Assembly: GCF_050320075.1 (NCBI RefSeq)
Contig: NZ_CP190018.1
Source: Escherichia coli
Lineage (GTDB): Bacteria; Pseudomonadota; Gammaproteobacteria; Enterobacterales; Enterobacteriaceae
Strand: one strand, 5' to 3'
Length of the DNA stretch: 64,000 nt
In this document: one piece after another, positions 9,001-15,000 of the stretch
How the letters are laid out: each line of letters starts with the position of its first letter
Numbering within the stretch: position 1 is the stretch's first letter
Program-made: the position numbers

Positions 9001-12000
9001 CATCGCAAGCCAACTACTCATACGTAACCTCATTGAATGAATCCATATTTCCAGAATAATCGAAATGAAATTCAGATCAAGATATTTCTGGTATTATCGA
9101 AATATCAACCAGACAAAGGGGGTGTCATATGCAGTTGGAAGAAGTTGCTAAAGCGCTGAAAGAGCTAGGTCACCCGACCCGTTTGTTCATATTCAAACAC
9201 CTGGTCAAAGCGGGGGAACAAGGTTTGCCGGTCGGTGAGTTGCAAAAGCAGCTTGGGATCCCCGGCTCCACACTCAGTCACCATATTTCAGCACTGGTAT
9301 CGGTAGGGCTGGTCAAACAAAACCGTGAGAGTCGAACGCTGATGTGTGTTTCGCAATACGCAATGCTGGAAGCGATAATTGAATTCTTACGTGAGGAGTG
9401 CTGCGTAAATAGCAAAATTGCCTGATGCGCTACGCGCTACAGATTTCATGCCATGCACGGTTTTGTAGGTCGGATAAGACGCGTTAGCGTCGCATCCGAC
9501 ATAAACAAAGCGCACTTTACCAACTATGGGCAGTGGATATCGCCGCTTTATTTCAAGCGTTTACCCGCTTCATCAACCACTTTCTCGCCATCTTCCTTGG
9601 TGAACGCGCCTTGTTGCGCATCTGGCAGAATTTCCAGCACGACTTCTGAAGGGCGGCACAGGCGAGTTCCCAGCGGCGTCACCACAATCGGGCGATTAAT
9701 CAGAATCGGGTGCTGAAGCATAAAGTCGATTAACCGATCGTCAGTAAATTTATCTTCTGCAAGGCCCAGTTCCTCATACGGCTCGACGTTTTTACGCAGC
9801 AGCGCGCGTACGGAAATCCCCATATCGGCAATGAGTTTGACCAGTTCATCACGCGTCGGTGGGGTTTCCAGATAATAGACAATGGTCGGTTCTGTGCCGC
9901 TGTTGCGGATCATCTCCAGCGTATTTCGCGACGTGCCGCAGGCTGGGTTGTGATAAATGGTAATGTTGCTCATATCAATATCTCATTACAAAGTGAAAGA
10001 GAGACGTAGCGCCAGCGCAGCCAGCGTCACAAAAAGCACCGGCAGGGTCATGATAATCCCTGTACGGAAGTAATATCCCCAGCTGATAGTCATATTCTTC
10101 TGCGAAAGTACGTGCAGCCAGAGCAGCGTCGCCAGGCTACCAATTGGGGTAATTTTCGGCCCCAAATCGCAGCCAATCACGTTGGCATAAACCATCGCTT
10201 CTTTGATAACGCCAGATGCCGTGCTGCCATCAATGGACAACGCGCCAACCAGTACCGTCGGCATATTGTTCATAATAGAAGAGAGGAAGGCGGTGAGGAA
10301 TCCGGTGCCGAGCGTCGCGGCCCACAGGCCGTTTTCCGCCAGCACGTTGAGTACGCCAGAAAGATATTCCGTTAGTCCGGCATTGCGCAGGCCATAAACC
10401 ACCAGATACATGCCGAGCGAGAAGATGACAATCTGCCAGGGCGCACCGCGTAGCACCTTACCCGTATTAATTGCATGACCGCGTTTAGCGACGGCAAATA
10501 ATATCAGCGCGCCCACTGCCGCAATGGCGCTGACCGGAATGCCGAGCGGTTCCAGAACGAAAAATCCCACCAGCAGAAGCAGTAAAACAACCCAGCCAGT
10601 TTTGAACGTAGCAGGATCTTTAATCGCTTCTGCGGGAGATTTCAGCAGCGCCATGTCGTAGTTCTGCGGAATATCTTTGCGGAAATAGAGATGCAACATC
10701 ACCAGCGTGGCAACAATCGCGGCGATATCCACCGGCACCATCACCAAGGCATATTCGCGAAAGCCGAGGCCAAAGAAATCTGCGGAAACGATATTCACCA
10801 GGTTGGAGACAATAAGCGGCAGGCTGGCGGTATCGGCAATGAACCCGGCCGCCATCACGAACGCAAGCGTCGTGCCTTTACTGAACCCTAAAGCCAGCAG
10901 CATGGCGATGACAATCGGTGTCAAAATAAGCGCCGCGCCATCATTGGCAAACAGAGCTGCAACGGCAGCACCGAGCAGGACAATCCAGGTAAACAGCAAG
11001 CGACCGCGTCCATTGCCCCAGCGTGAGACGTGCAGCGCCGCCCATTCAAAAAAGCCGGACTCATCCAGCAGCAGGCTGATGATAATGACGGCAATAAACG
11101 CCGCCGTCGCGTTCCAGACGATATTCCACACCACCGGAATATCACCCGGATGAACCACGCCCGTAAGCAACGCCAGTACCGCGCCGAGCGTTGCACTCCA
11201 GCCGATGCCTAAACCTTTCGGCTGCCAGATAACCAATACGATGGTCAGGACAAAAATAGCGCCTGCCAGTAACATAATGCCTCCCGGATAAAACACATCT
11301 GAAAATTCATATGTGTTTAGATAAATTTTTTAACTACAAATGTTCTTACTGTCTTCGGAACAATTTTGTCGAGCCAGGTTGCGGACAATCGCCTGAACCT
11401 TTTCCTGTTCACATCGCCAGGCCTCATCAATAATTTTCGCGGCCCATGATGGAATATGCGGTGATAAGCGGTAATGAACCCACTTACCCTGCTTGCGATC
11501 CAGCAATAGCCCACTTTCACGCAGCAATGCCAGGTGGCGGGATATCTTGGGCTGCGACTGATCGAGGGCAGTACAGAGATCGCAGACGCATAATTCTCCC
11601 AGCTCGCTGAGCAGTAAAACGATGCCCAGACGGGTTTCATCAGCAAGAATTTTGAACAGTTGGATGGGTAACAGAAATGACATATTGCGCTCCTGATTGT
11701 TGCAGGTAGTGTCTCTCTTCGAAGCGGATAAGTCAAAAACATATATGACTTAACGAATGTGTAAGCGCAGAAGAAGGTAATAGGTGTGAATTTTGAGTTG
11801 GGTATTCATTTGAAAGGAGGTCTGAATCAGGACGTAAAAAAACCGACTTTGCGTCGGTTTTTTACTTTCCAGCCCTGAGTTGGTGGCTCTGGCCGGAGTG
11901 AGAATGCCCACATCTAACGGTTCAATACTATTAGCCAGTGGCTAACATTGCAAGCGTTAGCGATTTCTTCAGCTGGCGAAGGGACAGTTTGCTATACATG

Positions 12001-15000
12001 TTGGTGAAAGAGGATTTATATACTTTCATCGGGTCGCTGCCGTACCAGGCCTTGTCCAAATCCGGACGTAAAAAAACCGACTTCGCGTCGGTTTTTTACT
12101 TTGCAGCCCAGAGTTGGTGGCTCTGGCTGGAGTGAGAATGCCATCATCTAACGCATCAATGCTAATACCATACTGAAACTATTGCAAGGACATGCTGGTT
12201 TTATAACCTGTATGTACTGTATGATTATCCAGTTAGTTCTGAGGCATTTTCACTCTGGTAATGCGCATAAACGCTTTCAAAGTCCTGGTCAGAAGTACGG
12301 GTGGTGCCGTTAACTGATGCTCTGGTCGGAGTGAGAATGCCCACATCTAACAATGGGGCATGCGCCGTGACAGGCAGTGGATGAGTAAGCGGATGCATTC
12401 TCACTCCATCGCATGGAGAAAACGGGTGATTGATAAAGCAATCATCGTTCTTGGGGCGTTAATTGCGCTACTGGAACTGATCCGCTTCCTGCTTCAGCTT
12501 CTGAACTGATAGCGGAAACGTAGTTAAGGGCAAAGAGCACACCACTCTTTGCCCTTTAACATTTAACGCATGGTCACGAACTCTTCTGCCGCCGTCGGGT
12601 GAATGGCGACGGTATTGTCGAAGTCTTTTTTGGTCGCCCCCATCTTCAGCGCCACCGCGAAGCCCTGCAACATTTCATCCATACCAAAACCAATGCCGTG
12701 AATTCCGACAATCTTCTCTTCCGGTCCAACGCATACCAGTTTCATGCGGCACGGCTGGCGGTGAGTGGTGACGGCGGTATACATCGCGGTGAAAGAGGAT
12801 TTATACACTTTCACCTGATCGTCGCCGTACTGCTCGCGCGCCTGCGGTTCCGTTAAACCAACAGTACCAATCGGCGGATGGCTGAAGACCACGGTCGGAA
12901 TGTTGCTGTAATCCAGATGCTCATCAGGCTTGTTATTAAACAGGCGTTCAGAGAGACGGCGACCCGCTGCAACTGCCACCGGTGTCAGTTCCACTGCCCC
13001 CGTGTTATCGCCCACAGCGTAAATACCTTCAACGTTGGTATTTTGATATTTATCGACGACGATATAGCCTTTTTCGTTAGTTTTAACGCCAGCGGCTTCC
13101 AGGTTGATGTTGTCATTGGCAGGCTCGCGACCAATCGCCCAAATCAGGCAATCTACCGTTTCACTGCGACCATCTTCCAGCTCCAGCGTCAGGCTGCCGT
13201 CGGCATTTTTCACCACCGCTTTCGGGATGGCGTTGGTGTGCAGCTGCGGGCCTTCGGCGTTCATCACTTCGACCAGCGTTTCAGAGATCATCGGGTCGAA
13301 GCTGCGCAGCGGCGCATGTTTACGCACAAACAGATGCGTTTTCGCGCCGAGGCCGTTAATCACGCCCGCCAGCTCAACGGCGATGTAACCCGCGCCAACA
13401 ACCGCCACGCGCTCTGGCAAAGCAGGAAGGGCGAAGAAGCCATCAGAATCAATACCGTATTCCACGCCCGGAATATCCGGGTGGCTCGGACGACCGCCGG
13501 TGGCGATCAGAATATGATCGGCCGTGATGGTTTCGCCGTTTACCTCCAGCGTTTTGGCATCAACGAAGCGGGCAAAGCCTTTGATTACATCAACGTTATT
13601 TTTACCGAGCACGTTTTCATAGGAAGTATGAATACGGTCGATATAGGCGGTACGGCTGGCGATCAACGTTTCCCAGTTGAATTTATTTATAGTGGTATCG
13701 AAACCATAATCCGGACCGTACATGTGGATCGCTTCACGGATTTGCGCCGCGTGCCACATCACTTTCTTCGGTACGCAGCCGACGTTCACGCAGGTGCCGC
13801 CCAGCTCTTTGGCTTCAATCAGCGCGCATTTCTGGCCGTACATAGCCGCGCGGTTGATGGAGGCGATACCGCCGCTGCCGCCGCCGATGGCGATGTAATC
13901 ATAGTGTTTAGTCATGACAGAGTGTCCTTATCGTTGATTACCGCGATTGTAGCGCGAGACGTAATAGGTGCCAGCAATGGCTGCAATTACTCCGGCACGA
14001 TCCAGCTTACGGTGGCGTGCCCGGTGCCTGCCGGAACCAGTTTGCTGTGCAGCCACGGCAGCACGTTATTCATCTGCTGTTCCAGCTTCCACGGCGGGTT
14101 AATCACAATCATGCCGGAAGCGGTCATGCCACGGCGATCGCTGTCTGGCAGTACCGCCAGTTCAATTTGCAGAATTTTGCGAATGCCGGTCGCTTCCAGG
14201 TCGTGGATCATGCGCTTAATTTGCTGGCGCAACACCACTGGATACCACAGTGCGTAAGTGCCAGTGGCGAAACGTTTATAGCCTTCTGCTATCCCGCTGA
14301 CTACCGCCTGATAGTCGGTTTTCATTTCATACGGCGGGTCGATAAGGATTAAACCACGGCGGGAAACCGGCGGCAGTTTGGCCTTAAGCTGCTGGAAACC
14401 ATCGGCTTTTTCGACGCGCGCACGATTGTCTTTCTGAAATTCAGAACGTAGCAACGGGTAATCGCTCGGGTGCAGTTCGGTCAGTTGCAGGCTGTCCTGT
14501 TCACGCAGTAACTGACGAGCAATCAACGGCGAACCGGGGTAGTAACGCAACTGACCGCTACGGTTGAAGTGTTTTACCACATTGATGTACGCCTCCAGCT
14601 CTGCAGGCAAATCGTCCTGCTGCCAGATACGGGCGATACCTTCGAGATATTCGCCGGTACGCTCGGCATGTTCGCTGCCTAACTGATAACGCCCGGCCCC
14701 TGCGTGGGTATCGAGATAGAGAAACGGTTTATCTTTCTCTTTCAGCGACTCGATGATCAGGCTCTGAACGGTATGTTTAAGGACGTCGGCGTGGTTGCCA
14801 GCGTGAAAGCTGTGGCGATAACTGAGCATGGGTAAAGGTGTTCCGGTAAGTAAAAATCGGCCCGTATTCGGGGCGCACAAAAGCCTATCAGGACAGTATA
14901 CCGAAAAGAGGCCGCCGCCGCGAAAGCGTAACGTTTCTCATTGAAATTCACTACACTTAACCCCATGCTACAAACATTATGTAAAGCGCCTGTTGAGCGC

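Follow-up and report, generated by a model that had tools for sequence, protein, structure and literature searches.

The 64,000-nucleotide stretch of Escherichia coli DNA analysed here (hereafter the window; NCBI RefSeq assembly GCF_050320075.1, contig NZ_CP190018.1) carries a spacer of 879 bp between arsR and gor (11684–12562) that holds the toxin gene dinQ, the small RNA genes agrA and agrB, and between these two a short stretch resembling part of the neighbouring glutathione reductase gene gor, which we term gor' (Table 1). An earlier note on this DNA had placed a 27-codon dinQ frame and a LexA box in the spacer, and both are borne out. The frame scores 54 bits on NCBIfam NF041472 toxin_DinQ (cut-off 30), and the LexA site matches the operator described for dinQ of K-12 (PMC3567139). 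The two direct repeats of roughly 85 bp that the note had described proved to be two AgrB units with terminators and leader-related cores (Rfam RF02891, gathering score 40); the repeated unit is, however, 135 bp rather than 85 bp, promoter and terminator included (11820–11954 and 12054–12188, 83% identical). Within these units, cores of 33 nt repeat the dinQ leader segment at 32 of 33 positions in agrB (97%; 11886–11918) and at 29 of 33 in agrA (88%, or 88–91% over alignments; 12120–12152), leader and agr cores being the same DNA repeat transcribed in opposite directions. Because the DinQ model, both AgrB models, the leader-repeating cores and the LexA box are all found, the locus is, as read from its sequence, the known E. 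coli dinQ/agrA/agrB type I toxin-antitoxin locus. That the peptide is toxic and is neutralised by the small RNA is an experimental result for K-12 (PMC3567139) and for DqlB/AgrB of the plasmid pOXA-48 (PMC12365149), and the same activities are predicted for the strain of the window. Elements of the agrB promoter are also named in PMC3567139, where the hairpin next to the gor stop codon is the dinQ terminator.

Table 1. Features of the arsR-gor spacer and its borders (positions in the window)
Feature	Position	Strand	Basis or remark
arsB		(-)	left of arsR
arsR	11330–11683	(-)	left border of the spacer; ORF list and annotation in identical or similar E. coli records
agrB small RNA	11834–11917	(-)	Rfam RF02891 AgrB, 106.2 bits, full length (1–84); position of annotated K-12 agrB
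agrB bidirectional terminator hairpin	11837–11863		palindrome
agrB promoter	11925–11953	(-)	-35 TTGCAA 11948–11953, 17-nt spacer, -10 TAGTAT 11925–11930; read from sequence
gor', putative pseudogene fragment	11952–12045	(-)	Gor residues ~362–393; secure 11971–12045; core of 53 bp, 11993–12045
junction, 8–9 bases	12046–12053		between end of agrA unit (..GGAC) and first gor-like codon
agrA small RNA	12068–12151	(-)	Rfam RF02891, 98.3 bits; terminator hairpin 12071–12097
agrA promoter	-10 12159–12164; -35 12182–12187	(-)	
LexA box of dinQ promoter	12215–12234	(+)	TACTGTATGATTATCCAGTT; CTGT-N8-CCAG pattern match 12217–12232; block conserved relative to K-12
dinQ leader segment (antisense target, repeated in agrA and agrB)	12319–12351	(+)	direct-repeat family
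dinQ coding frame	12426–12509	(+)	MIDKAIIVLGALIALLELIRFLLQLLN; 27 codons from GTG, plus stop; annotated dinQ in matching genomes
hairpin common to dinQ end and gor end	12526–12556		inverted repeat
gor, glutathione reductase, 450 aa	12563–13915	(-)	source-like stretch 12778–12830 = codons 362–380

Comparison with the K-12 dinQ-agrAB region (PMC3567139; PMC5066626), which the note had put forward as a check, recovers the same locus. The spacer is 92.4% identical to that of K-12 and 100% identical to that of E. coli CFSAN061763; the genes, their order and flanks (gor-dinQ-agrA-agrB-arsR), the LexA box, the promoters and the terminators are shared, and K-12 too has gor' at the same place. The window differs in carrying the other haplotype of gor', with an intact 42-codon frame and without the 4-bp deletion of K-12, and in its interaction core, which in both dinQ and agrB is GTGGGCATT in the window and AAGAACTCT in K-12. 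Neither the 2013 paper on the locus (PMC3567139) nor its 2016 follow-up (PMC5066626) mentions a gor-derived fragment. On its own gor' is a small evolutionary footnote, apparently an undescribed pseudogene scar in a well-studied locus, K-12 included.

The gor-like stretch that the note had seen between the repeats is confirmed. Positions 11993–12045 align with gor 12778–12830 on the same strand and without gaps at 44 of 53 positions (83%), with a BLAST E value of 1e-11 when gor alone is the subject and of 9e-8 for the whole window, and with a local alignment score of 35 compared with 8.4 +/- 1.1 (maximum 13) for 300 dinucleotide shuffles. The agr/dinQ repeats aside, this is the only off-diagonal match of the spacer in the 64-kb window. 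The minus-strand translation aligns with Gor in the reading direction of gor, and its 42-aa frame matches TIGR01421 glutathione-disulfide reductase at profile positions 363–393 of 450 (E = 2e-4). Homology is secure to approximately 11971, where CGCCAGC is shared, and gor' probably runs from 12045 down to approximately 11952. It occupies the entire 99-bp gap between the agrA unit and the agrB promoter, beginning 8–9 bp past the 135-bp agrA unit and ending at the agrB -35 element. Only about 31 of the 450 gor codons are covered, and most changes are non-synonymous.

Family-level similarity beside gor does occur without any fragment of gor: in Yokenella, a match of 70 bp (73%) between gor and the DNA downstream proved to be a paralogous oxidoreductase gene and was rejected as a gor fragment. 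A chance resemblance, or derivation from some other pyridine-nucleotide disulfide oxidoreductase gene, was considered for gor' as well. Here, however, the alignment lies some 24 standard deviations above the shuffles, the best family match is glutathione reductase itself at the matching positions, and the remnant in Escherichia albertii described below ends with the gor-specific EEF(V/M)TMR-stop. The shuffle, family and E. albertii results refute such an origin, to which we attach next to no probability. The gor' frame (11931–12059, minus strand) is open in strains of the window type, with 42 codons here. In some RefSeq records (L093 392–607; L111 412–750) gor' lies inside longer 'hypothetical proteins' that cross the agrA terminator and are almost certainly annotation artefacts.

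The age of gor' was approached by using Gor to search a single genome of each species, which gave 80 Enterobacteriaceae loci. The dinQ-agr module is near gor in only a few of these, and directly adjoins it in E. coli E69, E. albertii, Citrobacter youngae CCUG 30791 and Citrobacter sp. On2M. Both Citrobacter modules have one agr and lack gor', and their homology to the window ends at 12050–12052, where the agrA unit has its edge. The agr of E. albertii is likewise single, and it is followed by GGAC-AAAATTTAG-TACGGCGGCAATCAGGT, where TACGGCGGCAATCAGGT corresponds to gor codons 361–367. A further 17 unassigned bases lead to GCGGCGAAAGAATTCATGACCATGCGTTAA, the last 10 gor codons with the stop (score 22 compared with 8.8 +/- 1.4 for shuffles), and the stop codon is followed by a small hairpin with a T run. 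The same arrangement is present in 11 E. albertii genomes, namely the type strain and 10 others encoding the same Gor, and in one metagenome contig. The junction (GGAC, 9 nt, then TAC or TAT) is equally spaced in E. albertii and in the two E. coli haplotypes, window type (W) and K-12 type (K). Because E. albertii shares the junction and retains the stop-codon end, the original gor' would have duplicated gor from codon ~361 through the stop codon, approximately 270 bp in length, and probably arose at the outer edge of the dinQ-agr module prior to the divergence of E. coli and E. albertii. gor' would thus date the arrangement, in that the outer edge of the module had acquired its copied gor 3' end by the time the two species separated.

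Duplicates of the gor end are confined, among the 80 species representatives, to E. coli, E. albertii and an unrelated case in Phytobacter considered below. The 34 metagenome loci that contain the end of the agrA unit show only the K, W and E. albertii types, together with one contig cut at the junction. In a contig from a hedgehog gut metagenome (L127 7103–7138) the sequence after the agrA-unit end reads GGACAAGGCTTAATACG, K-like but with the gor-like C of TAC, and the contig ends there; this may represent an intermediate haplotype. The first 110 nt past the gor stop (L011–L090) differ in almost every genus of the Enterobacteriaceae, and also within Citrobacter, and this DNA varies in terminators, REP-like elements and neighbour genes. 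Since it differs in almost every genus, the position downstream of gor appears to be a hot spot of replacement.

Both versions of gor' were searched against 5,426 complete E. coli genomes and the region was found in 3,841–3,842 of them. The K type is present in approximately 3,030 genomes (~56%) and the W type in approximately 810 (~15%), including O157:H7 Sakai, leaving approximately 1,584 genomes (~29%) with no match. In the E. coli search from which the spacer identities come, extra matches at second places are presumably cross-matches between agrA and agrB and not a further locus. The frame of gor' is broken in the K haplotype, by a deletion of 4 bp and an insertion of 1 bp. Three genomes without gor' were inspected. 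Two of them (L008 and L009) carry an exact 234-bp deletion between the agr repeats, which leaves a hybrid of agrA 5' and agrB 3' parts. The third (L010, NZ_CP200274.1) has the 234-bp deletion and a second one that joins the agrA core to the dinQ core, removing the promoters of agrA and dinQ together with the LexA box, such that the toxin gene is without a promoter. The class with less than 80% coverage, which includes the L010 type, comprises approximately 835 of 5,422 genomes, one of which was inspected. As gor' is lost with one agr copy in the inspected repeat-mediated deletions, it offers a simple marker for them.

The W and K versions of gor' differ at 27 of 79 positions (34%), and the rest of the spacer differs by 0–8% save for the cores of agrB and dinQ (21% each). 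Measured against gor, W and K have 11 changes in common, with 9 private to W and 8 to K. Because the private changes are interleaved, W and K are two old lineages and not the product of one conversion tract. A single gene-conversion tract from gor was rejected as the source of the difference on these grounds and because the derived A in GTATAT occurs in both versions. Apart from one recombinant, W goes with the agrB core GTGGGCATT and K with AAGA(A/G)CTCT. As the only unconstrained DNA between the antitoxin genes, gor' thus reveals two haplotypes of unexpected depth that are tied to different recognition sequences of AgrB. Introgression is a possible source of this depth, as is hitch-hiking with antitoxin specificities under selection.

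The note had further raised the possibility that the spacer pairs with gor mRNA. An RNA from the plus strand of gor' would form a very stable duplex with codons 357–380 of gor mRNA (-84 kcal/mol for W and -74 for K, compared with -49 and -44 for shuffles), and the bidirectional agrA terminator (12071–12097) would end such a transcript. The stability of the duplex is, however, an automatic result of the homology. gor' has the orientation of gor, and RNA transcribed in the direction of agrA and agrB is therefore sense-like, with a duplex energy with gor mRNA no better than that of shuffles. In the K-12 dRNA-seq table (PMC4681348 Table S2) the dinQ start is on the reverse strand at 3646006 and the agrA and agrB starts are on the forward strand at 3646085 and 3646316, with no start site listed between agrA and agrB on either strand. 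A consensus scan detected no plus-strand promoter-like site in the spacer, a result of little weight as the scan also missed known promoters and terminators. Some 29% of genomes have no match to gor', the two versions stand 34% apart, and E. albertii lacks the middle part. Pairing with gor mRNA is not borne out by these observations, regulation of glutathione reductase by a spacer transcript is very improbable, and a new layer of gor regulation is not supported.

gor' might instead be kept as upstream promoter DNA of agrB, acting as an UP-like element or offering a binding site. Relative to the agrB start it spans about -36 to -135, and the 20–25 bp beside the -35 element (11955–11974) show only 2 differences between W and K, far better conservation than the rest. 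This conserved stretch is, however, the part with doubtful homology to gor, whereas the clearly gor-like part is the most variable sequence of the spacer (34%). Moreover, agrA works with quite different DNA upstream of its promoter, and recombinant genomes with a single agr lack gor'. We consider a role of gor' as a whole in agrB expression unlikely, and the 20 bp beside the -35 element may belong to the promoter. The sense orientation of gor', the lack of a K-12 start site, the loss of gor' in part of the species and the divergence of its two versions argue for a neutral, dispensable pseudogene scar that is no regulator of gor. In the earlier note, a gor-like stretch identical in all E. coli, as a plain ancestral feature, and untranscribed was to count against its reading. 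Ancestry, and on the K-12 start-site table the absence of transcription, are essentially what was found; identity across strains was not.

The module to which gor' is attached belongs to a family that is widespread on plasmids. Homologues of the 513-bp module occur in 2,104 plasmid records, mostly of conjugative plasmids, and some of the copies, annotated DqlB or DinQ, span 97–98% of it at ~70% identity. The dql family was named in PMC5066626, and DqlB/AgrB was shown by experiment to be an addiction system of pOXA-48 that is frequent in several incompatibility groups (PMC12365149). These plasmid modules resemble the window copy in their long-leader toxin and in a divergent antisense RNA that acts in trans and contains a repeat of ~35 nt from the leader; the window copy differs in being chromosomal and LexA-controlled, with two antitoxin copies and the gor' scar. 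No inspected plasmid copy is located beside gor or ars, and phage copies of the module were not found. A plasmid with agr and an ars operon was rejected as a source of agrB together with ars, the plasmid matches covering arsR or agr separately and never their junction. Tandem multiplication of the module also occurs on plasmids: a Salmonella IncFII plasmid (NZ_CP022492.1; L091 2057–3077) carries two dqlB genes ~925 bp apart, beside ccdAB and trbA.

Partial copies of the 3' end of a target gene are left beside inserted DNA at integration sites in the ends of tRNA or protein genes. At gor itself, Phytobacter ursingii ATCC 27989 (L034 4353–5940) has a complete gor followed by 1.38 kb of foreign DNA, in which a gene for a fimbrial-adhesin-like protein of 324 aa lies on the opposite strand, after which the gor 3' end recurs over 199 bp at 99% identity and ends in a different stop codon. 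This is an independent and recent parallel. In Phytobacter and E. albertii the order is that of integration-type partial duplicates, with a complete gene, extra DNA and then a shortened 3' end of that gene, oriented like the original. gor' differs from them in having neither an integrase nor a recognisable attachment-site repeat, and in being old (17–30% diverged) and mostly deleted; for these reasons the mechanism of its duplication is one we infer. The dinQ/agrAB locus is already known, and gor' is a further case of a truncated gene-end duplicate beside added DNA.

Taken together, we favour an account, to which as a whole we give a probability of roughly 85%, in which gor' is a non-functional, decaying remnant of a gor 3' end that was duplicated at the edge of the module in an ancestor common to E. 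coli and E. albertii. A single duplication at this outer edge would have copied gor from codon ~361 through the stop codon. In the lineage of E. albertii the middle of gor' would then have been lost and both ends kept. In that of E. coli the distal part, everything beyond codon ~393, would have been lost, with the agrB unit and the ars flank now in its place, so that codons ~362–393 came to be wedged between the agrA terminator and the agrB promoter. From then on gor' would have drifted neutrally as two old haplotypes, and recombination between the agr repeats would remove it along with one agr copy. Of the proposal in the earlier note that a duplication copying part of gor built the repeat array, the derivation of gor' from gor by duplication stands; that the duplication also made the agrA/agrB array is less likely than not, as E. 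albertii has the junction with one agr.

Several observations weigh against this account. No intact full-length gor' was found among the 80 species representatives or the 34 metagenome loci, and the reconstruction joins two partial remnants. Nothing in the present gor 3' end points to a foreign source, so that an insertion arriving with a gor end of its own stays hypothetical; such an origin was rejected on comparing the identities of codons 1–361 and 362–450 against 18 species, which gave no special likeness to the module-bearing Citrobacter. The divergence of gor' between W and K exceeds that of its flanks (0–8%) and that of gor third codon positions in the same strains (7–10%), a depth that simple neutral drift within E. 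coli does not explain. Finally, the start-site evidence comes from one K-12 strain, of the K haplotype, under two growth conditions.

The order of events and the mode of duplication, whether by an insertion anchored in gor or by tandem duplication, are our reconstruction. Because homologues of the module are common on plasmids, the DNA downstream of gor varies and Phytobacter provides a parallel, a duplicative insertion anchored in the gor 3' end would be a natural source of gor'. Alternatively, within the same scar model, a single tandem duplication of approximately 785 bp comprising gor codons 361–450, dinQ and agr could have made gor' and agrB together. A later deletion of the rest of gor' and of the second dinQ up to the -35 element of its agr would give agrA-gor'-agrB, and E. 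albertii would have lost the second module. This version reaches the E. coli layout by one duplication and one deletion. It accommodates the start of gor' at the end of the agrA unit and its stop at the agrB -35 element, the spacing of 785 bp between gor' and gor, and the equal identity (83%) of agrA to agrB and of gor' to gor. The DNA downstream of agrB (11684–11825) was examined for a relationship with gor or the module, which was rejected for want of any similarity, and an unrelated flank is what the tandem version expects of an original one. In E. albertii, however, the sequence after the gor' stop has no significant similarity to the module (11 compared with 10.7 +/- 1.3 for shuffles), so that a decayed second dinQ module behind gor' was rejected there and two more deletions would be needed. 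No intermediate with a second dinQ is present among the 80 species representatives or the 34 metagenome loci.

The promoter spacers, compared over 12153–12188 (agrA) and 11919–11954 (agrB), bear on this version in both directions. That of agrA, TAGTTTCAGTATGGTAT, is identical in the single agr of E. albertii and matches at 11 of 17 positions in Citrobacter. That of agrB, TGTTAGCCACTGGCTAA (agrB-type promoter TTGCAATGTTAGCCACTGGCTAATAGTAT), matches the agrA spacer at only 6 of 17, though the two RNAs hardly differ in their transcribed 3' portions. An identity of ~35–40% fits an old split of unconstrained sequence, whereas an agrB spacer more distant from agrA than the Citrobacter spacer is not what a duplication inside Escherichia predicts if the module was inherited vertically. 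The pattern suggests either that agrA and agrB split long ago and their RNA bodies were homogenised afterwards, or that agrB came from a foreign source. We regard the tandem version as a lesser possibility, well short of even.

A lead of more interest than gor' itself is the co-variation of recognition cores between dinQ and one agr copy. This core, 33–34 nt long and common to agrA, agrB and the leader of dinQ, is hypervariable within E. coli and was compared in 18 genomes with two agr copies (the window, K-12, Sakai, E69 and other loci among L001–L007, L017, L093 and L104–L111). agrB is nearer dinQ in 7 of the 18 (the window, K-12, L002, L093, L105, L106 and L111), with 2–3 mismatches versus 5–8 for agrA. 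In the remaining 11 (O157:H7 Sakai, E69, L003–L007 and L107–L110) agrA is the nearer, with 3–4 mismatches versus 6–7, and the single agr of E. albertii and Citrobacter is of the agrA type. The view from K-12 of agrA as a degenerate copy may hold only for some lineages.

We tentatively propose, at slightly less than even odds, that the scar and its surroundings record the capture of a plasmid-type addiction module beside gor and its subsequent diversification, with gor' and the agrB core forming two old haplotype blocks and the dinQ core co-varying with one antitoxin copy. If so, the K-12 picture of agrB as antitoxin and agrA as degenerate would be limited to some lineages, recognition specificity would be under diversifying or balancing selection, and gor' would serve as a neutral marker for the age of the split. 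Further co-variation is seen in Kosakonia sacchari (L051 5105–5600), where a dinQ-like module with one agr lies one gene from gor and a quite different core, GTTAGTCAGAGACAGTTC, is present in both the toxin leader and agr.

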